From: Planctomycetota bacterium
Lineage (GTDB): Bacteria > Planctomycetota > DG-23 > JAZDKG01
Length of the DNA: 64,000 nucleotides
Assembly: GCA_043803205.1 (NCBI GenBank)
Contig: JAZDKG010000073.1
Coordinates: forward strand, 2,129 to 66,128
Reading direction: 5' to 3'
Below, piece by piece: positions 339-48,009 of the stretch. The first letter of the stretch is position 1. The number at the start of each line of letters is the position of its first letter. The notes beneath the pieces are model-generated. The model was not told the origin of the DNA. It did no database searches and saw only the letters and a program-made list of their open reading frames with translations. The position numbers and the translations under genes were made by a program.

Positions 339-839
339 ATGAGGTGCAGGAAGTTTCAAAGGAACCTTTGGGCGTATCTGGACGGGGAGGCGCCCGAGAG
401 GCTCCGGCTGCTCATGGAGGAGCATGTCGCAACATGCGCGTCGTGCCGGCGGGAGGTCGAGCTTGCGCGAAAGGCCGACGGGCTTCTGGGGGCGATGGAG
501 GCGCCGGCTCCTTCGGACGGGTTCGTGCGCGACGTAATGAGGAAGATCGCGCGGGAGCCGAAGGCGCGCGAGCGGGTCAGTTGGGTTGTGCCCGTGAGCC
601 GAAGGGCACTGGCGTTGGCGACGGCGGCCGCGCTCGTGATCGCGGTCGTGACCTTCTATCTCGCCGGGGGCCGGCGCCCGGGTGCGCCGCCCGCCACCAC
701 CGCCGAGATCGAGATGCTCTCGGACATGGATCTCCTCGTGAACCTCGACGTGCTGGAGCACTTCGAAGAGCTGCAGATGCTCGATGTGATCGAGGAGTTC
801 GTCGACCAGATCCCGACGACCGGCGAGGCGAACTCGTGA
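339..839 (+). CDS. Anti-sigma factor, zf-HC2 zinc-finger type, single transmembrane helix
   Basis: N-terminal HxxxCxxC motif (HVATCASCRRE) typical of the putative zinc-finger anti-sigma domain, followed by a hydrophobic helix (ALALATAAALVIAVVTFYLAG). The sequence runs RBS ggaaaggga, 7 nt, then ATG 339. The partner ECF sigma is presumably upstream, outside the window. Confidence 0.6.
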   Translation: MRCRKFQRNLWAYLDGEAPERLRLLMEEHVATCASCRREVELARKADGLLGAMEAPAPSDGFVRDVMRKIAREPKARERVSWVVPVSRRALALATAAALVIAVVTFYLAGGRRPGAPPATTAEIEMLSDMDLLVNLDVLEHFEELQMLDVIEEFVDQIPTTGEANS

Positions 840-880
840 TGGGAATCAGGGAGTCAATCCACAGGGAAAGGAGATCACCG

Positions 881-2182
881 ATGAAGGCGACGAAGGTTCT
901 AACAGCAGCGCTCGTGGGGGCGGCGCTCCTCTTCTTCTCCATGCAGGCGTTCGGCGCGGAGGAGCCGGAGCAGGACGCGCTGGCAAAGCGATTCGCGGAA
1001 CTGGACAAGAACAAGGACGGCAAGGTGTCGCTCGACGAGTTTCGAGCGGCGCACCAGAAAGCCGCGCGGCCCGAGGCGGGGCAGCTAGGCGGAAAGCTTC
1101 GAGAGACCTTGCAGAAGCTCCAGGGGATGACCCCCGAGGAGCGCAAGCAGTTTGTGCAGAACCTCTCTCCCGAGGAGCGACGTCAGCTCCAGGAGATGCG
1201 CCAGGGCAGGGGGGCTCAGGGCAAGCAGGGAGGCGGGGAGGCCCGTCCGCAAGAGGGGCAGATGCTTGAGAGGCTCAAGGCAATGAGCCCGGAGGAGCGG
1301 CGGGCGTGGTGGCAGAATCTTCCCGAGGAGCAGCGGGATCGGCTCCGGGAGCGCCTGCGCGATGCCTTCGGGGGCGGTCAGGGCGTCCCGCAGTCGTCCG
1401 ATCAGGGCAGACGCCTTGGGGAGGGACCGGCCCTTCGACAAGGCTCAGGGCAGGCCCTTCGACCGGGCTCAGGGCGGGGCGCACAGGGGGGAGGGCGCCA
1501 GGACACATTCGCGATGCCACAGAACAGGCGACAGATGATGGAGCGGGGTGGCCCCGGACAGAGCGCTCAGGGGATGGGTCAGCCCTTTGGGGGACCCCAG
1601 GGCAGGCCCTTCGTCTCGCAGTCGCGGGATCAGGGCAGGCAGGACGGCGGCCGGATCATCGAAAGGCTCCAGCAGATGAGCCCCGAGGAGCGCCGGGAGT
1701 TGTGGCAGAGCCTCCCCGAGGAGCGTCGGGCGCAGATCCGGGAACGACTGCGCGAATGGCTTGGCGAGGGACCGGCCCTTCGACAAGGCTCAGGGCAGGC
1801 CCTTCGGCCGGGCTCAGGGCAGGGTCAGCAGATGAGGGGCCGCCCGGACGCGTTCGGGAGTCCGCGCGATAGACGTGGGATGACGGAGGGGGGACGTCCC
1901 GGTTTCGAGGGCGGGCCCGGCTCGGGGCGGGGCACAGAATGGTATGGCGGCGGACGGCCTCGGCCGCAGTGGATGGACCGGCCCTTCGGCGGACCTCAGG
2001 GTAACCCCTCCGTGGGACCTCAGGGGAGGCCTTATGGCGGCCAGGAGTTCGGCGGCCGGAGCAATTGGCAGGATGTCCCACGCCGGAACGCGCGTCTCCC
2101 GCGTCTGCGGGATGATCAGGGTGCCGTGACGGACCGGGACGTGGTCGAGAACTTGGATCTGCTTGAGGATCTGGACTTCTAG
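881..2182 (+). CDS. Secreted EF-hand / DUF3106-like repeat protein with Gly/Gln/Arg-rich low-complexity repeats
   Basis: Strong RBS aaaggaga before ATG 881. Signal peptide MKATKVLTAALVGAALLFFSMQAFGAEEP. Canonical 12-residue EF-hand loop DKNKDGKVSLDE (nt 1004-1039). Repeated (M/L)SPEERR..W(Q/W)NL motifs typical of DUF3106 periplasmic proteins. Two near-identical ~55-bp direct repeats encode GEGPALRQGSGQALRPGSG. The longer ORF from 344 in the track overlaps the anti-sigma gene in another frame and is rejected. Confidence 0.6.
   Translation: MKATKVLTAALVGAALLFFSMQAFGAEEPEQDALAKRFAELDKNKDGKVSLDEFRAAHQKAARPEAGQLGGKLRETLQKLQGMTPEERKQFVQNLSPEERRQLQEMRQGRGAQGKQGGGEARPQEGQMLERLKAMSPEERRAWWQNLPEEQRDRLRERLRDAFGGGQGVPQSSDQGRRLGEGPALRQGSGQALRPGSGRGAQGGGRQDTFAMPQNRRQMMERGGPGQSAQGMGQPFGGPQGRPFVSQSRDQGRQDGGRIIERLQQMSPEERRELWQSLPEERRAQIRERLREWLGEGPALRQGSGQALRPGSGQGQQMRGRPDAFGSPRDRRGMTEGGRPGFEGGPGSGRGTEWYGGGRPRPQWMDRPFGGPQGNPSVGPQGRPYGGQEFGGRSNWQDVPRRNARLPRLRDDQGAVTDRDVVENLDLLEDLDF
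1424..1477 (+). repeat. Intragenic direct repeat, copy 1 (cccttcgacaaggctcagggcaggcccttcgaccgggctcagggc)
   Basis: Near-identical copy at 1769-1822. Related sequence also occurs in the intergenic block 7872-7942. Confidence 0.7.
1769..1822 (+). repeat. Intragenic direct repeat, copy 2
   Basis: About 52 of 54 nt identical to 1424-1477. Confidence 0.7.
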
Positions 2183-2193
2183 AAAGACGGGCG

Positions 2194-2832
2194 ATGAAGC
2201 GACGGGTGTGGGTAAGCATTGCGGTTCTTGCGCTGATCCTCCTTCCAGCGGGTGGGGGCGCTGGCGCCGAAAGCGCCGGCGCCCGCAGCCCCGAAGAGCT
2301 GGCGCAAGCGAGCAGGAGATGGGAGTCGCTCTCGGAGGCCCAGAGACAGGCCATCCGCGAGCGCTACGAAGCGTGGCAAAGGCTTTCGCCCGAGGAGCGG
2401 CAACGGATTCGGAAGAATTTCGAGCGCTGGCAGACGATGGGGGAGAGGGAGAAGGGGGAACTCAAGCGGGAGTGGGAGAGACTTCAGGAACTGTCGGGGG
2501 AGCGCCATCGCGAGATCATGAGGCGGATCGCGATTTTAAGACAGATGCCGCCGGCGAAACGGGCGCTCGTATACCGGTTTCTGGAGAGACTTAGGGAGCT
2601 TGGGCCCGAAAGGGTCAAGGCGATCCGGGCGCTGCCCCGGGAAGAGCGCAGGCGGGTGCTGACGCGGATCCTGGAGGAGGTGAGGCGGGAGATGCGCGCT
2701 GGCGCTCCCGGAGGGGGTCCGATGGATATGCGGCCTCGTTCCCGTCCCGCCGACGAGGGCGTCAGGCGGGGGGGACCGACGGAGGGGCCGGCCAGACCGA
2801 TGAGGCGGGGGGCTCCTGCGGAAATCCCTTGA
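2194..2832 (+). CDS. DUF3106-like periplasmic protein
   Basis: Signal-peptide-like N-terminus (MKRRVWVSIAVLALILLPAGG). Repeated W..LSPEE.QR motifs (RRWESLSEAQRQAIRERYEAWQRLSPEERQRIRKNFERWQ). This family is commonly encoded next to ECF sigma / anti-sigma pairs. Confidence 0.55.
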   Translation: MKRRVWVSIAVLALILLPAGGGAGAESAGARSPEELAQASRRWESLSEAQRQAIRERYEAWQRLSPEERQRIRKNFERWQTMGEREKGELKREWERLQELSGERHREIMRRIAILRQMPPAKRALVYRFLERLRELGPERVKAIRALPREERRRVLTRILEEVRREMRAGAPGGGPMDMRPRSRPADEGVRRGGPTEGPARPMRRGAPAEIP

Positions 2833-2891
2833 GTTCACGATCTTGAGCGTTAGACTGGGCGCCCCCATTGACTATGCGTAGGGTGCGCTAG

Positions 2892-3623
2892 ATGATCGTG
2901 ACCATTGACGGGCCGGCAGGGAGCGGCAAGAGCACGGCTGCGCGGAAGCTTTCCGAGCGCCTGGGGTTCCGATATCTTGAAACAGGGGCGATCTACCGGG
3001 CGCTCACACTGTGCGCTTTGCGGGCCAAAGCAGATCTTGAGAATGGGCCGGTACTTGCGGAGCTTTTCCGTCGAAACTCCGTGGAGCCGGTATGGGCACA
3101 GGAGGGGATCCGGGTGTTCCTTAACGGAGAAGACGTCTCTGCCGAGATTCGCACGAGGAAGATCACGGAGAGGGTCAAGAGCGTGGCCCGACACGCGGAG
3201 GTGCGCCGGCAAGTCAACGAGCTTACGCGGGGGTTGGCGAAAGGGAGATCGGCGATATCCGAGGGGCGCGACCAGGGGACGGTCGTCTTTCCGGATGCCG
3301 ACGTGAAGTTTTATCTCGATGCCAAGCTTGATGTTAGGGCAAGAAGGCGTTACGAGGAGCTAGTGGCCGCCGGCGAGAGGGCGACGCTGGAGGAGGTGCG
3401 GCGGGAGCTTGAGCAAAGGGATGAGAGCGATCTCTTTAGGAAAGTTGCGCCGCTCAGGCAGGCCCCGGATGCGGTGCGGGTGGACTCATCCGAGCTGACC
3501 GTCGAAGAGATGGTGGGAGAACTGGAGCGGGTGGTCATGGAGAGGAAGTCGAACGGTTCGTCCCGCAGCGGCGGTATCACCGCAGGCGGTTCGACAGGCC
3601 TCACCGCAGGGGGGGGAACATAA
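2892..3623 (+). CDS. cmk: Cytidylate kinase
   Basis: N-terminal IDGPAGSGKST P-loop and the overall Cmk pattern (GAIYRA, LDVRARRRYEEL). Confidence 0.9.
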   Translation: MIVTIDGPAGSGKSTAARKLSERLGFRYLETGAIYRALTLCALRAKADLENGPVLAELFRRNSVEPVWAQEGIRVFLNGEDVSAEIRTRKITERVKSVARHAEVRRQVNELTRGLAKGRSAISEGRDQGTVVFPDADVKFYLDAKLDVRARRRYEELVAAGERATLEEVRRELEQRDESDLFRKVAPLRQAPDAVRVDSSELTVEEMVGELERVVMERKSNGSSRSGGITAGGSTGLTAGGGT

Positions 3624-3627
3624 GGAC

Positions 3628-4257
3628 GTGCTGCATCGGACATGGTACCTTTTCGCACAATGGATCTGTCAGGTCGGCTGTTCGCTGGCGTTCGGGCTGC
3701 GGGTAGTGGGGCGGAGAAACATCCCGGCGACGGGGTCCGTGCTTATAGTCAGCAACCATCAGAGCTTTCTCGACCCGGTGCTGGTGGGGGTGGGGCTGTC
3801 GAGGGAGGTCCACCACCTTGCGAGGGAGACGCTCTTCAAGAACAGGCTCTTCCGCGGGCTCATCGTGTCGCTCAACGCGGTGGCGGTGCGGCGGGGGGAG
3901 GCGGACGTCGAAGGGGTCCGCCGGGCGATCAGGGTCTTGAAAAACGGGAAGATGCTGCTAATCTTTCCGGAAGGAACGCGCACGAGAGACGGTGGGCTCC
4001 AGCGCATCCGGCCCGGTTGGACGGCGCTCGCGGCAAGGAGCGGCGCCACGGTGGTCCCGGCCGTGATCGAAGGCGCACACAGCGCATGGCCACGGACGCG
4101 GCAGTTCCCGCGGTGTCGGCGGATCGCGGTCGCGTTCGGCGAGGGGTTTCGTGTCGAGGAAAGGGGGCGGGGGGAAGCGCGCCGCGCGAGCGAGCGTCTG
4201 GAGAGCGAATGGAGACGGCTGCGAGAAAATCTGCGGAAGCTCTTGGAGACGAGGTGA
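3628..4257 (+). CDS. plsC: 1-acyl-sn-glycerol-3-phosphate acyltransferase
   Basis: HxxxxD acyltransferase motif (NHQSFLDP) and FPEGTR motif. The stop overlaps the ispH GTG start (GTGA). Confidence 0.85.
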   Translation: MLHRTWYLFAQWICQVGCSLAFGLRVVGRRNIPATGSVLIVSNHQSFLDPVLVGVGLSREVHHLARETLFKNRLFRGLIVSLNAVAVRRGEADVEGVRRAIRVLKNGKMLLIFPEGTRTRDGGLQRIRPGWTALAARSGATVVPAVIEGAHSAWPRTRQFPRCRRIAVAFGEGFRVEERGRGEARRASERLESEWRRLRENLRKLLETR

Positions 4258-5117
4258 CGATCGAGGTGGCCAGTCCGTACGGGTTCTGTTTCGGCGTGCG
4301 ACGGGCGGTCGAGGTCGCGGAGGAGGCGGCGCGCACGCACGGGAACGTGACGACGCTGGGGCCGATCATCCACAACCCGCAGGAGGTGGGACGACTCGCC
4401 GCGGAGGGGATCCGGCCCGTGGAGAGCGCGGAGGGGGTGGTCGGGAGCGTGGTGGTGATCCGGTCGCACGGGGCGACGCGGGAAGAGATGGAGAAGCTGG
4501 AAGGGCTGGGGGTGCGGATCATCGACGCGACGTGTCCGCTGGTGGAGCGGGTGCAGGAGCACGCGGCGCGGCTTGCGCGGGAGGGGTACCAGGTGCTGCT
4601 TCTGGGGGAGGCCAGGCACCCGGAGGTGAAGGCGATTCTGTCGCACGCGCCGGGGGCGGCGTTGGTGCAGTCGCCGGGGGAGGTGGAGGGGATGGAACTG
4701 GGACAGCGGGTGGGGATCGTGTCGCAGACGACGCAGTCGCCGGAGGCGCTGAGTAGGCTCGTCTACGAGGTGGCGCGGAAGGGCGTGCGGGAGATGGTGG
4801 TGTATAATACGATCTGCTCGGCGACGGCGGACCGGCAGGCGGCGGCGGCGGAGCTCGCCGGGCGGGTGGAGTGCATGTTCGTGCTGGGAGGGAAGAACAG
4901 CGCGAACTCGCGGAGACTGGCGGAGATCTGTCGGCGGAGGAACGGACGGACGTTCCACGTCGAGACGCACCGGGAGCTGGAGAGGGAGATGTACGCGGGG
5001 GCGGGAAGAATCGGCGTGGCGGCGGGGACCAGCACGCCGGACTGGATCGTGAGTGAGTTCGTCCGGGAACTCGGACGCCTGTGCGCATCCCGGACGCAAA
5101 CCAAGGGGGACACTTAG
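4254..5117 (+). CDS. ispH: 4-hydroxy-3-methylbut-2-enyl diphosphate reductase
   Basis: Conserved IspH blocks: ASPYGFCFGVRRAV, IIHNPQ, DATCPLV, VVYNTICSATADRQ. A GTG start at 4254 is coupled to the plsC stop. An alternative ATG lies at 4209. The upstream part of the track ORF (from 3642) is a high-GC artefact overlapping plsC. Confidence 0.88.
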   Translation: MTIEVASPYGFCFGVRRAVEVAEEAARTHGNVTTLGPIIHNPQEVGRLAAEGIRPVESAEGVVGSVVVIRSHGATREEMEKLEGLGVRIIDATCPLVERVQEHAARLAREGYQVLLLGEARHPEVKAILSHAPGAALVQSPGEVEGMELGQRVGIVSQTTQSPEALSRLVYEVARKGVREMVVYNTICSATADRQAAAAELAGRVECMFVLGGKNSANSRRLAEICRRRNGRTFHVETHRELEREMYAGAGRIGVAAGTSTPDWIVSEFVRELGRLCASRTQTKGDT

Positions 5118-5186
5118 GAGAAGTTGTCGCGCCGACCGGGTTTCCCCCTCCCGGGCGAAGCGACGAAACGTAAGGGACCTTTATTC

Positions 5187-6917
5187 ATGGCCAAGGCAAG
5201 CGAGGAGATGAAGCGGCTTTCGATCGGCAAGGAAGACCTGGACAGGGAAGTGACGGAGGCGATGCGGGACCTCGGCGGCCCGATCGAGCTCCTGTACGAG
5301 AACTCGATCAAGAACTTCGAGGTGGGATCGGTCCTCAAGGGGAGAATCGTCCGGACGATCGGGGAGGACGTGCTCGTGGACGTGGGGTACAAGTCGGAGG
5401 GGGTGGTGGCGAAACGCGAGTTCAGGCGGGAAGACGAGATCCTGCCGGGTAAAGAGGTGGAGGTGCTGCTGGAGAGCGTGGAGGACGAGGAAGGGGTGAT
5501 GGTGCTCTCCAAGCGGAAGGCGGACCGGATCCGCGGATGGGAGCGCGTCATCGAGACGCACCGGGAGGGGGACGTGGTGACGGGGACGGTGACGAGGAAG
5601 ATCAAGGGCGGGCTTCTCGTGGACATCGGGGTGCCGGTGTTCCTGCCCGCCAGCCAAGTGAACATCCGCCGGCCCGGAGACATCGCGGAGTACATCGGGC
5701 GGGAGATCCAGGCGAAGATCCTCAAGATCGACGAGGCGAAGCGAAACATCGTGATCTCGCGAAGGAAGCTCATCGAGGAGGAGCGCGAGAAGCTCAAGAG
5801 GAAGCTGATGCAGGAGCTGGCGGTCGGGCAGGTCCGCAAGGGGGTGGTGAAGAACATCGCGGACTTCGGCGCGTTCGTGGACCTCGGAGGGATCGACGGC
5901 TTGCTCCACATCACGGACATGTCTTGGGGGAGGGTGTCGCACCCGAGCGAGGTCGTGAAGATCGACGAAGAGATCGAGGTGATGATCATCGGGATCGACC
6001 GGGAGCGGGAGAAGGTGGCGCTGGGCCTCAAGCAGAGGCTCCCGAGCCCGTGGGCGGGGGTGGAGGAGCGCTATCCCGTCGGGAGTCGGCACGTGGGGAA
6101 GGTGGTGAACATCGTGTCGTACGGGGCGTTCGTGAAGCTTGAGGACGGGGTCGAGGGGCTGGTGCACATAAGCGAGATGAGCTGGACGAGGCGGCTCAAC
6201 CACCCGAGCGAGATGATGGCGATCGGCGACGACGTGGAGGTGGTGGTGCTGGCGATCAATCGGGACAAGCAGGAGATCTCCCTCGGTATGAAGCAGACGG
6301 AGGTGAACCCCTGGATGCTCGTGGAGGAGAGGTACCCGCCCGGGACGGTGATCGAGGGGAAAGTGCGGAACCTGACGAACTATGGCGCGTTCGTGGAGAT
6401 CGAGGAGGGGATCGACGGGTTGTTGCACGTGAGCGACGTCTCCTGGACGAAGAAGGTGAACCATCCCAGCGAGGCGCTGCAGAAAGGGGATACCGTGCGG
6501 GCAGTCGTGCTCGCGGTGGACCAGGAGAAGAAGCGGGTGTCGCTGGGCATGCGGCAGCTCAAGGAGGACCCGTGGCTGCATGACATCCCCTCGCGCTACC
6601 AGCCGGGGGACGTCGTGAAGGGGAAGGTGACGAAGGTCACGAACTTCGGGGTGTTCGTCGAGATCGAGCCGGAGCTCGAGGGACTGCTCCACATCAGCGA
6701 GCTTGCGGACCGAAAGGTGGAGGACCCGCAGGAGGTCGTGAAGATCGGCGATGAGGTGGAGGTGCGGGTGCTGCGTGTGGATATCGAGGAGCGCAAGATC
6801 GGCCTCTCCCTGCGACCGGCTGGGGAAGAGGGCGCGCCGCCGACCGAGACGGCCGAGGCGGACGCGGCTGAGGAAGACGTCGAAGACGCGGAGGAGGAAA
6901 CCGAAGAAGAAGAGTAG
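5187..6917 (+). CDS. rpsA: 30S ribosomal protein S1
   Basis: Six tandem S1 domains (repeated GxV..I..FGAFV....G..GL.H.S blocks). Acidic C-terminal tail. Conserved cmk/ispH-rpsA neighbourhood. Confidence 0.9.
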   Translation: MAKASEEMKRLSIGKEDLDREVTEAMRDLGGPIELLYENSIKNFEVGSVLKGRIVRTIGEDVLVDVGYKSEGVVAKREFRREDEILPGKEVEVLLESVEDEEGVMVLSKRKADRIRGWERVIETHREGDVVTGTVTRKIKGGLLVDIGVPVFLPASQVNIRRPGDIAEYIGREIQAKILKIDEAKRNIVISRRKLIEEEREKLKRKLMQELAVGQVRKGVVKNIADFGAFVDLGGIDGLLHITDMSWGRVSHPSEVVKIDEEIEVMIIGIDREREKVALGLKQRLPSPWAGVEERYPVGSRHVGKVVNIVSYGAFVKLEDGVEGLVHISEMSWTRRLNHPSEMMAIGDDVEVVVLAINRDKQEISLGMKQTEVNPWMLVEERYPPGTVIEGKVRNLTNYGAFVEIEEGIDGLLHVSDVSWTKKVNHPSEALQKGDTVRAVVLAVDQEKKRVSLGMRQLKEDPWLHDIPSRYQPGDVVKGKVTKVTNFGVFVEIEPELEGLLHISELADRKVEDPQEVVKIGDEVEVRVLRVDIEERKIGLSLRPAGEEGAPPTETAEADAAEEDVEDAEEETEEEE

Positions 6918-6994
6918 GAGCCCAGGACGGAGCCGCGCCCGCCGTTTACGGTGAACCGTGCGGCGGCCCCGGCGACGGCGGAGGAGGACGGGTC

Positions 6995-7867
6995 ATTTCC
7001 GACCGGGACACGATTCAGACCTATCTCCGGGAGATCAACCGGATTCCCCTCCTGAGCGCACAGGAGGAGAAGGAGCTGGCGCACCGTGTGCGGGAGGGGG
7101 ACCACGGGGCGCGCGAGCAGATGATCCAGGCGAACCTCCGCCTCGTGGTGAACATCGCCAAGGGCTACGCGCGCCGGGGGATGCCGCTGGGGGACCTCAT
7201 CGAAGAGGGGAACGTCGGGTTGCTGCGTGCGGTGCAGGGGTTCGATCCGGGGCAGGGGTTCCGGTTCTCGACCTACGCGTCCTGGTGGATCAAGCAGGCG
7301 ATCCGGCGGGCGCTCGTGTCCAAGGTGAAGACGATCCGGATCCCGGCGTACATGTCGGAGATGATCGGACGATGGCGCGCGGCGACGACGGAGCTCACCG
7401 ACCGGCTGGGGCGGGCGCCGATGGAGCGGGAAGTGGCGGAGGCGATGGAGGTGACGCCGGCGAAGCTCCGGCTCATCGTGATGGCGGCGAACTCGTTCGC
7501 GTCGGCGGACCAGCCGCTGGCGCACGATCAGTCGCTCACGATCGCCGACGTGCTGGCGGACGAGAGCATCAAGGCGCCCGAGCAGGAAGTCGCGGACAGC
7601 CTCGAGGTGGAGGGCCTGAAGGGGCTGCTGGAGCGCCTGTCGAAGCGCGAGGGGGACGTGCTCGTGATGCGCTACGGCCTCTTCGGGTGCGAGCCGATGA
7701 CGCTCAAGCAGATCGGGGAGAGGGTCAGCCTAACGCGCGAACGGGTGCGCCAGATCGAGAATCAGGCGCTGCGCAGGCTCTATGCGATGATGACGGACGA
7801 GGGGGAGCCGAAGGAGGAGAAGAAGCCGAAGAGGAAGGCGAAGGGGAAGAAGCGACGGGAGGCGTAA
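6995..7867 (+). CDS. Sigma-70 family RNA polymerase sigma factor (RpoD/RpoS-like, short form); start codon unresolved
   Basis: Regions 1.2, 2, 3 and 4 are recognisable: TIQTYLREINRIPLLSAQEE, ANLRLVVNIAKGY, GFRFSTYASWWIKQAI, LKQIGERVSLTRERVRQIENQALRRL. There is no ATG, GTG or TTG in frame between the upstream stop (6869-6871) and the conserved region 1.2 at ~7001. An ATT at 6995 is preceded by GGAGGA with a 6-nt spacer. Confidence 0.75.
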   Translation: MSDRDTIQTYLREINRIPLLSAQEEKELAHRVREGDHGAREQMIQANLRLVVNIAKGYARRGMPLGDLIEEGNVGLLRAVQGFDPGQGFRFSTYASWWIKQAIRRALVSKVKTIRIPAYMSEMIGRWRAATTELTDRLGRAPMEREVAEAMEVTPAKLRLIVMAANSFASADQPLAHDQSLTIADVLADESIKAPEQEVADSLEVEGLKGLLERLSKREGDVLVMRYGLFGCEPMTLKQIGERVSLTRERVRQIENQALRRLYAMMTDEGEPKEEKKPKRKAKGKKRREA

Positions 7868-7871
7868 GACG

Positions 7872-7942
7872 CCCCTTCGTCCCGCAGTCGCGGGATCGGC
7901 GCAGGCCCTTCGACGAGGCTCAGGGCAGGCGCTTCGGGCGGG
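7872..7942. repeat. Intergenic copy of a short hairpin-containing repeat family
   Basis: ccccttcgtcccgcagtcgcgggatcggcgcaggcccttcgacgaggctcagggcagg resembles the coding repeats at 1385-1477 and 1607-1639 and the gtcccgcagtcgcgggac hairpin inside the MITE-like element at 19437-19454. Confidence 0.6.
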
Positions 7943-7969
7943 AAAGATGGGAAGGAAAGGAGGGAGGCG

Positions 7970-8530
7970 ATGAAGAAGGTCGGCGGGCCCGCGGGTGCGG
8001 GCGGAGTCGAAAGGCTCAAGGCGCTCATCCGGGACGTGCCGGATTTCCCGAAGAAGGGGATCCTGTTCAAGGACATTACGCCTCTGGTGGGCGATCCGGA
8101 GGCGCTGCGGCGAACGGTGGAGCTTCTTGCGGAGCCGTACCGAAAAGCGGGCGTGACGGCGGTCGCCGCCGTGGAGAGCCGCGGGTTCATCTTCGGCGCG
8201 CCCGTGGCCCTGGCGCTGGGGGCGCGCTTTGTGCCGTTCCGCAAGCCGGGGAAGCTCCCCTGGCGCACGGAGCGGGCGACGTATTCCCTCGAGTACGGGA
8301 CGGACGCGGTAGAGGTGCACACGGACGCCTTCCGGAAGGGGGAGCGGGTGCTCCTCGTGGACGACCTTCTTGCGACGGGGGGGACGATGGCCGCGTGCGC
8401 GGAGTTGGTCGAGAAGCTCGGCGCGACGGTGGCGGGATGCAGCTTCGTGATCGAGCTCTCGTTTCTCAAGGGGCGGGCGAAGCTCTCGCGCCACAAGGTG
8501 AGCGCGCTCATCGACTATCCGGGGGAGTGA
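7970..8530 (+). CDS. apt: Adenine phosphoribosyltransferase
   Basis: IRDVPDFPKKGILFKDITPL, VESRGFIFGAPVA and VLLVDDLLATGGT PRPP-binding motifs. Strong RBS aggaggga. Confidence 0.9.
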   Translation: MKKVGGPAGAGGVERLKALIRDVPDFPKKGILFKDITPLVGDPEALRRTVELLAEPYRKAGVTAVAAVESRGFIFGAPVALALGARFVPFRKPGKLPWRTERATYSLEYGTDAVEVHTDAFRKGERVLLVDDLLATGGTMAACAELVEKLGATVAGCSFVIELSFLKGRAKLSRHKVSALIDYPGE

Positions 8531-10219: not shown

Positions 10220-11278
10220 ATGCTGACGCCGAAGGAGAGGACGCTGCGGGCGCTGCGGTTTGAGCGCCCTGACCGCCTGCCCAAGGCGGACTTCTACTGG
10301 TCCGAGTTTGAGGCCATCGCCCGAAAGAGGCGCGCGATCCCGCCGGGCGTGTCGCTCGAAGAGCACTACGCGGTGGACATGGGGCTCCTCTTCCCGGACG
10401 AGGGGCCCTACACGACCCGCGCGGGCACCGTCCGGGAGACGGACACGGAGAGGATCCGCATCACTCCCTGGGGACAGAAGGTGCGTGAAGTGAAGGGGGC
10501 GTTCTTCAGCGAGGAGCTCGAATCGCCGATCCGGGAGCAGAAGGACCTCGATCGTCAGCCGTTCGATCCCCCAATGCTCCCGTCGCGATATGAGCATTTC
10601 CTTGACCCTTCCGTGTACCATCCGGACAAGCTCTGCTACTTCGTGAAAACGGGGGGCCCATACCTGCGGAGCGCGTTCGTGCGGGGACAGACGGAATGGC
10701 TCATGGACATCGCCGGGGACGAGGGATTCGCGAAGGAGCTCGCCTGGCGGATGGGGGACTTCCTCATGCAGGTCGGACGGGAGGCATTCAAGAGGTGGGG
10801 CGACACGTCCACGGGGGTGTGGATCTTCGACGACATGGCCTCCAACCGGGGCCCGATGTTCTCGCCCGAGAGCTTTGAGAGGATCTTACTGCCGGCGTAC
10901 CGGCACATGGTGAAGAGCTGGAAGGAGGCGGGGGCGAGCTACGTGCTTCTGCACTCGGACGGGAACATCGAGGTGCTCTTAGACATGCTGATCGAGGCGG
11001 GGATCGATGGGTTCAACCCGGTGGAGCCGCGCAGCGGGATGGACCTGGCGCGGCTGCACGAGAAGTACGGGAAGCGCGCGGCGTTCATCGGGGGGATGTG
11101 CAACTCGGTGGTGCTGCCGAGGGGGCCCGTCGAGAAGGTGCGGGAGCAGGCCGAGCGGATCATCGCGGCGGGGAGGGACGGCGGGGTTATCATCGGGGCG
11201 CACTCGATCGGCCCGGACATTCCCGTCGAGCACTACGAGGCGTACGTTGAGCTCGTGAACTCGTCGCGGTACGAGTGA
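10220..11278 (+). CDS. Uroporphyrinogen decarboxylase (URO-D) family protein, MtaA/CmuA-like (paralog 1)
   Basis: Length and conserved blocks of the URO-D / methylcobamide-methyltransferase family (FDDMASNRGPMFSPESF, HSDGNIEVLLDMLIEAGIDGFNP). RBS aaggagaagg before ATG 10220. Confidence 0.8.
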   Translation: MLTPKERTLRALRFERPDRLPKADFYWSEFEAIARKRRAIPPGVSLEEHYAVDMGLLFPDEGPYTTRAGTVRETDTERIRITPWGQKVREVKGAFFSEELESPIREQKDLDRQPFDPPMLPSRYEHFLDPSVYHPDKLCYFVKTGGPYLRSAFVRGQTEWLMDIAGDEGFAKELAWRMGDFLMQVGREAFKRWGDTSTGVWIFDDMASNRGPMFSPESFERILLPAYRHMVKSWKEAGASYVLLHSDGNIEVLLDMLIEAGIDGFNPVEPRSGMDLARLHEKYGKRAAFIGGMCNSVVLPRGPVEKVREQAERIIAAGRDGGVIIGAHSIGPDIPVEHYEAYVELVNSSRYE

Positions 11279-15534: not shown

Positions 15535-17304
<1,770 letters not shown>

Positions 17305-17647: not shown

Positions 17648-17659
17648 GAGGTGTGGACG

Positions 17660-19270
17660 ATGGCCAAGCAGCTCATGTATTCCGACGAGGCCCGTCGGAA
17701 GGTCCAGGCGGGGATCCGTCGTCTCGCCGACGCGGTGCGGGTGACGCTCGGGCCGACCGGGATGAACGTGATCATCGAGAAGAGCTTCGGTGGTCCGATG
17801 GTGACGAAGGACGGGGTGACGGTCTCGAAGGAGGTGGAGCTGGACGATCCCTTCGAGAACATGGGGGCGAAGATGGTGAACGAGGTGGCGACGAAGACCT
17901 CGAACGTCGCCGGAGACGGGACCACAACCGCGACCATCCTCGCCGAGGCGATCTACAACGAGGGGCTCAAGAACGTCACCGCGGGCGCCAACCCCATGGA
18001 GGTGAAGCGCGGGATCGAGCTAGCGGTCCAGACGGTGACGGAGGAGCTTGCGAAGCTGTCGCGCGCGGTGAAGCGCAAGGAAGAGATCGCGCAGGTGGCG
18101 ACCATCAGCGCGAACAGCGACACGGTGATCGGGAACTTGCTTGCCGACGCGATGGACAAGGTGGGCAAGGACGGCGTGATCACGGTCGAAGAGGGGAAGG
18201 CCGTGGAGACCACCCTCGATGTGGTGGACGGCCTGCGGTTCGACAAGGGATACATCTCGCCCTACTTCGTGACGGTGCCGGAGAAGATGGAGGCGACGCT
18301 CGAGAAGGCGTACATCCTCATCCATGAGAAGAAGATCTCCAACGTTCGGGAGCTCCTGCCGTTGCTGGAGAAGGTGGCGCAGAGCGGGAGGCCGCTCCTC
18401 ATCATCGCGGAGGAGGTCGAGGGCGAGGCGCTGGCGACACTCGTGGTGAACAAGCTGCGGGGGGTGCTCGTGACGTGCGCGGTGAAGGCGCCCGGCTTCG
18501 GGGACCGCCGCAAAGCGATGCTCCAGGACATCGCCATCATGACGGGCGGCGAGGTCGTCAGCGAGGATCTCGGCGTCAAGCTCGAGAACATCTCCATGGA
18601 CGTGCTCGGGTCGGCCGAGGCGATCACGGTGGACAAGGACAACACGACGATCGTGAAGGGGGGCGGGAAGAAGCAGGCGGTCCAAGACCGCATCGCGCAG
18701 ATCAAGAATCAGATCGAGCAGACGACGAGCGACTACGATCGCGAGAAGCTCCAGGAGCGCTTGGCGAAGCTCTCCGGCGGGGTGGCGATCCTCTCTGTCG
18801 GGGCGAACACCGAGGCGGAGATGAAGCAGAAGAAGGGCAGGGTGGAGGACGCGCTCCATGCGACCCGGGCGGCGGCCGAGGAAGGGATCGTGCCCGGGGG
18901 CGGGATCGCGCTCCTGCGGACCTGCGCGGCGCTGGACGCCGCGCGCAAGAAGGCCCGCGGGGACGAGAAGATCGGCGTGGACATCATCGCGCGGGCGATC
19001 CAGGAGCCGTTGCGGCAGATCGCGCGGAACTCGGGCGCGGACGGCCCCGTGATCCTGGCCCAGGCCCTCAAGAAACCCACGAACGTCGGCTTCGACGCGA
19101 CGACGGGGGAGTTCGTGGACATGTTCAAGGCCGGGATCGTCGATCCGACGAAGGTGGTGCGGACGGCGCTTCAGAACGCGGCCTCCGTGGCGGGGCTGAT
19201 GCTGACGACGGAGACGCTGGTCACGGAACTCAAGGAAGAGGAAGAGGAGGTCGCCGGGAGCATCGCGTAA
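17660..19270 (+). CDS. groEL: Chaperonin GroEL (copy 2, lacks GGM tail)
   Basis: A full-length 536-aa GroEL ([26 protein letters not shown]). The C-terminus is acidic ([12 protein letters not shown]) rather than GGM repeats. RBS aggaggtg. Confidence 0.95.
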
Positions 19271-19398: not shown

Positions 19399-19688
19399 AG
19401 AGCCTATCCGAATACCAGGGCCGTGTGCGCCGCGAGGTCCCGCAGTCGCGGGACGAGCAGGACAAGGAGCGAGGAGGCAGCCGTGTCAAAGGATAGACAC
19501 GACGACGACGAGCGACGCAGGCATGCGATGCAACCGCCCGCGGCCCGGAGGGTTGGGGCGGCGAGAGGTCGTCTGCGGCGTTGCAACTCCTCAGCGTATC
19601 TCTCCTCTGATACACCTGCGTCGTCGCGCCTTGCATCCGACCTCTCGGCGCTCCCAACGCGCGCGACCCTGGTATTCAGATAGGCTCT
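19399..19688. mobile_element. MITE-like element copy A (non-coding, bounded by ~25-bp terminal inverted repeats)
   Basis: Left end agagcctatccgaataccaggg. The right end, reverse-complemented, is agagcctatctgaataccaggg. An internal core gcatgcgatgcaaccgcccgcggcccggagggttggggcggcgaga is shared with copy B. It contains the gtcccgcagtcgcgggac hairpin at 19437-19454. It lies between the groEL2 stop and the dnaJ start. Confidence 0.6.
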
Positions 19689-47733: not shown

Positions 47734-48009
47734 AGAGCCTGTCCGAATAACGGGGTCGCGCGTTGGGAGCGCCGAGAGGTCGCATGCAAGGCGCGACGAC
47801 GAAGGCGTATCAAGGGGACGATACGTCGAGGAGGAGCAACGCAGCAGGCGGCATCTCGCCGCCCCAACCCTCCGGGCCGCGGGTGGTTGCATCGCATGCC
47901 TGCGTCGCTCGTCGTTGACGTGTCGCTGCGGACACGCCTGCCTCCTCGCTCCTTGGCCTGCTCGCAAGCACCTCGCGGCGCGCGCGGCCCCGTTATTCGG
48001 ATAGGCTCT
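47734..48009. mobile_element. MITE-like element copy B (inverted relative to copy A)
   Basis: Ends agagcctgtccgaataacgggg and, reverse-complemented, agagcctatccgaataacgggg. The internal core gcatgcgatgcaaccacccgcggcccggagggttggggcggcgaga (reverse complement of 47862-47906) is ~95% identical to copy A. It lies in the divergent gap between the mfd start and the DUF502 gene promoter. Confidence 0.6.

Follow-up and report, generated by a model that had tools for sequence, protein, structure and literature searches.

Did the short repeats that lie within and between genes in a 64,000 nt stretch of a Planctomycetota genome begin as coding repeats that seeded intergenic DNA, or as repeat DNA that was absorbed into genes? 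The stretch, here called the window, is part of a contig of 66% GC (JAZDKG010000073.1, positions 2,129 to 66,128) in a metagenome-assembled genome (MAG; GCA_043803205.1) labelled 'Planctomycetota bacterium'. A first-pass annotation of the window, made from the sequence without database searches, had noticed a hairpin-containing repeat in the gene for a secreted EF-hand/DUF3106-like protein, in the spacer between a sigma-factor gene and apt, and in a miniature inverted-repeat transposable element (MITE), and had offered both directions as explanations. We conclude that the repeats are probably modular GC-rich interspersed repeats of the repetitive extragenic palindrome (REP) or bacterial interspersed mosaic element (BIME) type, which spread at the DNA level and were absorbed into reading frames.

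Two units with a common skeleton, read in three frames

All copies listed in the first-pass annotation are present, at or within a few bases of the positions it gave, and the in-frame translations it quoted are correct. The repeats are built from two units, A and B, with the common skeleton CCCTTCG-centre-TCAGGGCAGG. The B unit is 24 nt long and has a 7 nt centre (for example CCCTTCGACAAGGCTCAGGGCAGG), and the A unit is 33 nt long, its centre being the 16 nt palindrome TCCCGC-AGTC-GCGGGA. Every copy in the window is on the forward strand, and the copies run head to tail (Table 1). Both lengths are divisible by three and none of the three forward frames of either unit contains a stop codon, so that insertions and duplications of units leave the frame of a host gene intact. 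A composite of both units in cmk (3554-3610) and weaker units that begin at 1364, 1583, 1982 and 2006 and keep a 24 nt register had gone unnoticed in the first reading, as had the use of different frames.

Relative to unit position 1, the A unit at 1607 is read in frame 1 (PF...QGR, as PFVSQSRDQGR), the B units at 1431, 1455, 1776 and 1800 are read in frame 3 (ALR...SGQ, as ALRQGSGQ ALRPGSGR), and frame 2 is used in the cmk composite (SSRSGGITAGGSTGLTAGG). The spacer copy at 7873-7942, which begins 5 nt past the stop codon of the sigma-factor gene and lies upstream of apt, is untranslated. The cmk composite consists of 33 nt (3554-3586) and 24 nt (3587-3610) parts, has the same architecture as 7873-7929 and is identical to it at 43/57 positions. 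The B blocks use codons that are rare in eight neighbouring genes, namely CGA (7% of Arg), TCA (1% of Ser), CAA (15% of Gln) and CTT (17% of Leu), and the G + C content at their third codon positions is 0.59, compared with 0.73-0.95.

The EF-hand gene contains an internal duplication (1255-1570 and 1648-1915, approximately 80% identical). The sole gap in the alignment of the two parts is a 48 nt block, 1363-1410, which comprises one weak B unit and one decayed A unit and thus represents a unit-sized, in-frame indel. The 3' hairpin arm of this decayed A unit is destroyed, and no hairpin remains. The two B+B blocks of the gene are identical at 56/58 positions, compared with approximately 80% identity in the duplicated coding sequence that flanks them.

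The units were also recognised with profiles built from sequences outside the window. The B profile was made from 123 B units of unrelated IMG/VR contigs, gathered with a pattern derived from a window unit, and the A profile from eight A units of metagenome and genome contigs; neither includes a sequence from the window. Five of the B units match the B pattern itself (starting at 1431, 1455, 1776, 1800 and 7906), compared with none in 100 shuffles. A loose 14-mer with up to two mismatches was found eight times in the window, which is not above the chance expectation of 3.6.

Absence of the units from related genomes

Seven syntenic contigs from relatives, approximately 109 kb in all, were compared; six of them are independent, and the closest S1 proteins are 77-78% identical. 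The gene order cmk-plsC-ispH-rpsA-sigma-apt is kept in most of them, and in three the anti-sigma factor and EF-hand-like genes upstream are kept as well. Neither regular expressions nor the A and B profiles found a unit in any of the seven contigs.

In the window, the Pfam Cytidylate_kin domain of Cmk stops at residue 212 of 243, and the last approximately 20 residues form a tail. The five distinct Cmk orthologs examined (L243/L244, L245, L246, L327 and L328) stop directly past the domain, approximately 20 codons earlier, and have no tail; the remaining contig, L329, shows no cmk. The tail, encoded over 3554-3623, reads GSSRSGGITAGGSTGLTAGGGT, and the next gene begins 5 nt past its stop codon.

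The one true ortholog of the EF-hand gene among those examined, found in two strain versions (L243/L244), has the same signal peptide, EF-hand and SPEQRR helices. Its C-terminal motif, DVMENWDLLDDL, corresponds to DVVENLDLLEDL in the window and is in the same frame. This conserved motif lies downstream of all the units of the gene, which is evidence that these are translated. The linker of the ortholog is an unrelated 28 aa G/Q/R repeat that has no DNA in common with the units. This comparison, which the first-pass annotation had proposed as a check, supports gain at the DNA level. The copy number of the linker repeat varies among the relatives. The version in L243 (4677-5852) encodes 391 aa and that in L244 (3811-4818) 335 aa, and the difference of 56 residues is two copies of the 28 aa repeat; both samples represent one population.

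In the window, the sigma-apt spacer measures 102 nt, compared with 64, 49, 90 and 16 nt in relatives, which have no units there. In one of these (L246, approximately 11196-11244), the spacer contains CGCCCCTTCGT where the window A unit begins (gacGCCCCTTCGTcccgc), which may be an ancestral target or microhomology, or chance. On the sequence comparisons, the units were evidently gained in the lineage of the window.

A reading of the repeats as ordinary low-complexity protein repeats would have selection acting on a Gly/Gln/Pro-rich linker, and would make the similarity of the spacer and cmk copies a coincidence. It could draw on the linker of the relatives, which is likewise a G/Q/R-rich tandem repeat of variable copy number (391 versus 335 aa), and on the weak PFGGPQG-type units. 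The four units of this type are not recognised by the external profile and differ mainly at synonymous sites; those at 1583 and 1982 differ at six positions, five of which are third codon positions. However, the skeleton is read in two frames within the EF-hand gene and in the third in cmk, and is untranslated at 7873-7942. The B blocks are rich in rare codons, profiles from unrelated sequences match the window with E values down to 1e-10, and at the DNA level the linker repeat of the relatives has nothing in common with the units. Where the A and B units are concerned, this explanation is already largely refuted, and we regard it as decidedly unlikely. The PFGGPQG-type units may be either old units that are now under protein-level selection or a motif native to the protein, and are counted here as weak members.

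Copies in other organisms

The pattern CCCTTCGAC-N3-4-CTCAGGGC was found at 120 or more loci in IMG/VR. Among the matches listed, its centre is strongly non-random (AGG in 42 and AAG in 36 of 137), and in many cases the motif makes up the 3' arm of a long hairpin with the 5' arm ccgttcgtggtgagcctgtcgaacca, or sometimes forms head-to-tail arrays joined by AGGC, as in the window. The sub-form seen in the window, with a 3 nt centre that ends in G (AAG, GAG or CGG), is a minority, found at six viral loci. Matches to the B profile at 7904, 1774, 1429 and 1453 (E 3e-7 to 3e-5) place the window units in the wider CCCTTCGAC..GCTCAGGGC family, as defined here from IMG/VR contigs and plasmids. The long-hairpin form is also present on finished plasmids of Sphingobium, Moraxella osloensis, Comamonas, Methylobacter, Sinorhizobium and others, always in stretches without an annotated feature; the Sphingobium match is exact over 28 nt, with up to 13-15 places per record. 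As these are finished plasmids of isolates, the form is not an assembly artefact. When the window composite was used to query plasmids with BLAST, only chance-level matches were returned. The B motif is not ubiquitous, as it is absent from approximately 0.87 Mb of unrelated GC-rich genome pieces.

A scan of a genome collection with an 18-base pattern gave 118 matches, mostly chance ones, but including an exact 33 nt A unit in an AT-rich spacer of the Planctomycetota MAG AUK223 (L222). The A unit at 1607-1639 matches it at 32/33 positions. The AUK223 unit has cggcaa on both sides, but this is a single case, and a flanking duplication around units was not seen consistently. In metagenomes, the A core TTCGTCNCGCAGTCGCGGGAT was found at 78 loci, with approximately one expected by chance (an estimate). 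These loci lie in many unrelated contexts and approximately 14 have the full unit, ending in TCAGGGCAGGCT. Several adjoin B-like units or sit in dense arrays on both strands. Some peat contigs (e.g. L285 and L299) have 5-7 hairpins per 8-13 kb, on both strands and in mosaic arrays, and some of the peat hairpins are nested inside larger GTAG-ended palindromes. Inverted hairpin pairs occur at some metagenome loci (L272/L308 and L290). Tandem 24 nt B units are found in a divergent spacer of an organism of lower GC content (L325). All external copies inspected (L222, L299 and L325) are in spacers. A protein search with the units translated in three frames returned two weak matches, both spurious open reading frames (ORFs) over repeat arrays, and Pfam found nothing in translated arrays. 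Annotators presumably know these words from spurious ORFs.

As the same units occur in non-coding arrays of unrelated organisms, the direction was from repeat DNA into genes and not the reverse, and the A and B units are, on this evidence, DNA-level modules rather than protein repeats that seeded intergenic copies. Of the two directions offered in the first-pass annotation, the seeding of intergenic copies by coding repeats is not supported, given the frames, the codons, the external arrays and the relatives. Had the repeats been born inside the EF-hand gene, fragments of that gene would later have been duplicated to the site after the sigma-factor gene and to the 3' end of cmk. Most window copies are indeed in the EF-hand gene, and the spacer and cmk copies are single composites. 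However, units are present in non-coding arrays of organisms that lack this gene (L222, L299, L325 and the plasmids), and the spacer and cmk copies bring no flanking gene sequence with them, which makes such an origin very improbable. The opposite direction, exaptation of REP-like repeats, is supported as far as uptake into coding sequence is concerned, given the three frames, the rare codons, the non-coding arrays elsewhere and the absence from six relatives. The term exaptation overstates the case: the in-frame C-terminal motif downstream supports translation, and the third-position differences of the PFGGPQG units are the one hint that the peptide may have a function.

An artefact of assembly or binning, through repeat-induced misassembly or chimeric joins in a short-read MAG, appears extremely improbable. 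The contig does come from a MAG, and the orthologous linker is broken in one relative (L245, a 47 aa ORF only), but reads are much longer than the units, the reading frame stays open as far as the conserved C-terminal motif, and identical units are present in many independent assemblies and on finished plasmids of isolates.

Some related sequences were seen in passing. At approximately 15 metagenome loci, as well as L253, L258 and L281, a 21 nt A core lies inside an apparent conserved membrane-protein ORF (...ALIGLFVPQSRDRRYSRLFHWWLVAMILFII...), and L260 has a diverged version of this ORF in which the core is kept with one change. The match could be due to chance, in a soil organism that is abundant, or could mark a further intragenic copy. 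The word CGCAGTCGCGGGA is common to other multi-copy repeat families, in a Lentisphaeria MAG (L172, L220 and L236), where the form is the double hairpin gtccCGCAGTCGCGGGATCCCGCAGGgcggga, and in Verrucomicrobiota MAGs (L137, L189, L201, L202, L211 and L241), where it is ggggatccaCGCAGTCGCGGGACAGGCAGGcacg.

Words of the A/B kind, as arms of long hairpins or in head-to-tail 24 nt arrays, were thus found in Planctomycetota, in unidentified soil and peat organisms and on plasmids of Alpha-, Beta- and Gammaproteobacteria. No description of the core sequences was found in the searchable literature, in which matches to the peptide words and DNA cores were all irrelevant, or in Rfam; absence from that literature is weak evidence. 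It is conceivable, though doubtful, that the units represent an as yet unrecognised superfamily of ultra-short words (20-33 nt), near-identical across distant phyla. To be conserved in this way, the words would need to have spread horizontally or to share a trans-acting partner other than the classical GTAG-REP/RAYT pair (RAYT, REP-associated tyrosine transposase), and stop-free multiples of three would be a recurrent source of new disordered protein segments. The near-identity of short words across distant bacteria is the least expected element of this analysis; it lies outside the original finding and rests on pattern scans whose counts are lower bounds.

Setting of the units in the window

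The genes over 339-8530 are all co-directional (Table 1). In the EF-hand/DUF3106-like protein, Pfam found EF-hand_7 and a weak match to DUF3106, and a homolog database search with this protein (V2A58_05185) returned only the protein itself. A single-sequence AlphaFold (AF2) model is poor overall (mean predicted local distance difference test score, pLDDT, 52), with confident helices at residues 64-163 and 247-293, which hold SPEERR/DUF3106-like repeats, and coil with pLDDT below 50 at residues 164-246 and 302-417. All units map to this predicted coil, save the 3' end of the A unit at 1607-1639 (residues 243-253), approximately seven residues of which enter the predicted helix that starts at 247.

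Table 1. Repeat units and genes in the window
Feature	Position	Strand	Basis and remarks
zf-HC2 anti-sigma factor gene	339-839	+	
Gene for secreted EF-hand/DUF3106-like protein, 433 aa (V2A58_05185)	881-2182	+	ORF; two low-complexity linkers hold the units
Degenerate B-like unit (1364-1387), then degenerate A unit (approximately 1385-1411)	1364-1411	+	Regular expression; A profile 1384-1410, E 9e-4
Two tandem B units, unit frame 3, ALRQGSGQALRPGSGR	1431-1478	+	B profile from 1429 (E 3.7e-7) and 1453 (E 2.9e-5)
Weak B-like unit PFGGPQGR, abuts the A unit on its 5' side	1583-1606	+	Regular expression; 24 nt register and skeleton only; no match to external B profile
A unit, stem-loop, CCCTTCGTCTCGCAGTCGCGGGATCAGGGCAGG, unit frame 1, PFVSQSRDQGR	1607-1639	+	A profile from 1608, E 1.3e-10
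Two tandem B units, duplicate of 1431-1478	1776-1823	+	B profile from 1774 (E 3.2e-7) and 1798 (E 0.06)
Two weak B-like units PFGGPQGN PSVGPQGR, frame 1	1982-2029	+	Regular expression; repeat families D1/D4; not matched by external B profile
DUF3106 protein gene	2194-2832	+	
cmk	2892-3623	+	Pfam Cytidylate_kin
A (33 nt) + B (24 nt) composite, C-terminal tail of Cmk, GSSRSGGITAGGSTGLTAGG, unit frame 2	3554-3610	+	Repeat family D8; A profile from 3557, E 2e-3
Acyltransferase gene, ispH, rpsA	between cmk and sigma-factor gene	+	
Sigma-70-type factor gene	7088-7867	+	
Non-coding composite: A (7873-7905), B (7906-7929), partial unit (7930-7942)	7873-7942	+	A profile from 7874, E 9.6e-9; B profile from 7904, E 2.8e-7
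apt	7970-8530	+	
Hairpin GTCCCGC-AGTC-GCGGGAC (GTCCCGCAGTCGCGGGAC), inside MITE copy A	19437-19454	+	A profile from 19437, E 1e-3

The MITE is present in two copies of approximately 280-290 bp in opposite orientation (copy A, 19399-19688; copy B, 47734-48009), with 22 bp terminal inverted repeats (AGAGCCTATCCGAATACCAGGG), and is largely palindromic throughout. The first-pass annotation had counted it as a locus of the family, and copy A does carry the hairpin; the skeleton is absent, however, and copy B reads TGCTTG at that site. As the hairpin is absent from the second copy, it is not part of the MITE consensus. Its match to the A profile covers model positions 7-23 only. The MITE shares with the family just the 16-17 nt hairpin, in one of two copies, and is therefore not the carrier of the family.

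Two other repeats in the window were recorded. A 24 nt tandem repeat, GACGCGGAGGAGGAAAACGAAGAA, in 2.1 copies at 6861-6910, encodes the acidic C-terminal tail of ribosomal protein S1 and shows no sequence relationship to the A and B units. The S1 tail is longer in relatives (639-702 aa, compared with 597 aa here). Tandem chaperonin paralogs of the Cpn60/GroEL family (15544-17304 and 17651-19270, offset by 2023 nt) share 71-78% DNA identity over long stretches.

RNA folding and a possible role as a cis-acting element

The hairpin had been described as a 7 bp stem. Only the MITE copy has a perfect 7 bp stem; the gene and spacer copies both have G-T as their seventh pair, with one further pair, T-G, in the gene copy (1607-1639). 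As RNA, the A unit is predicted to fold into a 5 bp outer and a 7 bp inner stem, better than shuffles (z = -2.8 for 1595-1645).

These properties invite the view that the units are functional cis-acting RNA or DNA elements, for mRNA 3'-end protection, read-through attenuation or protein binding, and that the intragenic copies are by-products. All window copies are co-oriented with transcription, the spacer copy lying 5 nt past a stop codon and the cmk copy forming the last codons, and among the metagenome variants the stem is near-invariant and the loop variable. In general, moreover, REPs are considered to function at the RNA level, downstream of ORFs (PMC3733652). However, no compensatory base changes were found, folding of the whole spacer is no stronger than that of shuffles (z = -0.18), neither a T tract nor an Rfam family was found, and copies elsewhere are on both strands and in dense arrays. 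As a full account of the units we consider this unlikely, but it is compatible with their being DNA-level interspersed repeats and does not exclude that explanation. It is plausible, by analogy with what has been proposed for REPs generally, that the A unit acts as a stem-loop at mRNA 3' ends.

How the units may have spread

If the units are REP/BIME-type repeats, as we prefer, the usual home of the family would be non-coding DNA just downstream of genes, where units would join head to tail into small arrays. In the lineage of the window, copies would have arisen immediately after the sigma-factor gene and at the cmk 3' end, where the old stop codon would have been lost, so that the reading frame now extends through the element; and copies would have arisen several times inside the two disordered linkers of the secreted EF-hand/DUF3106 protein. 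Units inside frames would be translated as Gly/Gln/Arg/Pro-rich filler. For the spread, we favour a trans-acting single-strand enzyme (HUH/RAYT-type) that would insert the units strand-specifically, with slippage or duplication occurring locally afterwards, and the transcribed stem-loop may have a role at mRNA 3' ends.

Candidate enzymes were sought with tblastn, using E. coli RayT as the query. Homologs were found only in L306/L313 (E 1e-11) and L254 (E 1e-10; Pfam Y1_Tnp), two independent loci among the 78 retrieved from metagenomes by means of the A hairpin; approximately 2 Mb of other loci contained none. These RAYT-like genes (L306 3000-4000, which equals L313, and L254 4950-5950) have arrays of GTAG-type REPs on both sides (GGTAGGGCGCAYTGGC..., GGTAGGGACGCTTGGCCCCAAGCGTCC and CTGTAGTCGCCTCGCTATGTCGAGGCG), with an A hairpin within 3-5 kb. 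The co-occurrence is suggestive, but does not identify a cognate transposase. Adjoining the RAYT locus in L306 (4009-5883, reverse strand) is a gene for a secreted EF-hand protein with a long His/Gly-rich repeat region (HHHHGFGGGFGGERFAH...). This protein was considered as a homolog with a native PFG...QGG motif and ruled out, as BLASTP shows only the EF-hand loop in common.

Several observations, besides the PFGGPQG-type units discussed above, weigh against this account. The window covers only 64 kb of the genome, and all copies, at three loci plus the MITE hairpin, are within 1.3-19.5 kb. The B unit alone has only a 5 bp GCCCT/AGGGC stem and folds no better than shuffles. No RAYT homolog was found in the window with tblastn, and the repeats that flank the RAYT genes elsewhere are of the GTAG type and differ in sequence from A and B. 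The hairpins are not followed by a terminator-like T tract, a terminator scan found nothing at the units, and Rfam gave no match for the window, at gathering or E-value thresholds, or for eight repeat-rich loci. With S1 of the nearest relatives only 77-78% identical, neither target-site duplications nor clean empty sites could be delimited.

Taken as repeat DNA that entered genes, the locus is a clean, small case of non-coding repeat DNA turned into protein: over 3 kb, each of the three frames of a single skeleton is translated somewhere, a housekeeping kinase has gained a tail from it, and it fills out the linkers of a secreted protein. Annotation of such genomes should therefore allow for low-complexity segments and unusual C-terminal tails that derive from repeats and are not ancestral.

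Comparison with known repeat systems

REPs are 20-40 bp long and lie mostly just downstream of ORFs; approximately 10% are at ORF ends, and some lie inside genes, including Rickettsia palindromic elements (RPE), where they encode 20-30 residues, or up to 82 in clusters (PMC3733652). The units resemble REPs and BIMEs (E. coli BIMEs and the GTAG and CGTC superfamilies; Di Nocera et al. 2013, PMC3733652) in their GC-rich 20-40 nt size, in the stem-loop of the A unit, which fits the general definition of a REP as a short palindromic stem-loop, in the spacer copy placed just downstream of an ORF and between co-directional genes, in joining other short motifs in mosaic arrays, and in having some copies in ORFs or at ORF ends that encode 10-30 residues. 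In the window, one locus is extragenic, one is the 3' end of an ORF and the rest are intragenic. BIMEs differ in that the window copies form direct head-to-tail arrays rather than inverted dimers, and the B unit is hardly palindromic.

Neither tagged superfamily accommodates the units. An unpaired GTAG, the tag of the first, is missing from both ends of A and B, and no GTAG-REP family was found in the window. CGTC-tagged REPs have an unpaired CGTC tag (or TGTC or CCTC), an 8-9 bp stem that starts with A-T pairs, a loop of 4-5 nt and a short CCA-like tail (PMC3733652). The A unit, TT-CGTC-CCGC-AGTC-GCGGGA-T, has a CGTC and a 4 nt loop, but the TC of the tag is paired, the stem consists of 6-7 GC-rich pairs and there is no CCA tail. 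REPINs, which are inverted pairs of REPs with a short spacer mobilised with RAYTs (Bertels and Rainey 2011, PMC3116915; E. coli RayT), are likewise short hairpin repeats without an obvious target duplication; such pairs were not found in the window, nor was a flanked RAYT. REPINs are described as lineage-specific and vertically inherited, whereas A/B words recur across distant taxa. If that recurrence across very different bacteria is real, it bears on how REP-like repeats spread, as current REPIN models assume vertical, lineage-specific inheritance.

Other systems differ more. MITEs are also non-autonomous interspersed DNA, but the units are ten times shorter and have no terminal inverted repeats. 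DNA uptake sequences (USS/DUS) are short over-represented words that also occur inside genes in several frames and as inverted pairs behind genes, but their cores are 9-12 nt and species-specific. There is no evidence here of genome-wide over-representation or of competence. A CRISPR repeat, an integron attC site, a group II intron domain V and a tRNA-derived origin were considered and set aside on sequence form.

A further parallel for the intragenic copies is with the RPE (Ogata et al. 2000, as cited in PMC3733652). As far as that secondary account describes them, these are palindromic insertions that are in frame and translated and are tolerated at sites where they do not disturb the fold, as appears to hold for the units; RPE-1 is 100-150 bp and AT-rich, RPE-4 and RPE-6 are CGTC families, and the host range is restricted. 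The units are 24-33 nt and form direct arrays. Like intragenic REPs and RPE, the copies inside genes lie in ORFs whose frame continues through them and whose orthologs are without the segment. As the units lack the defining features of both tagged superfamilies and of REPINs, we class them as a new family of REP-like repeats, some copies of which are intragenic. REPs inside genes have been documented before (PMC3733652), and the units described here, which belong to no named family, are a new example of that known phenomenon.

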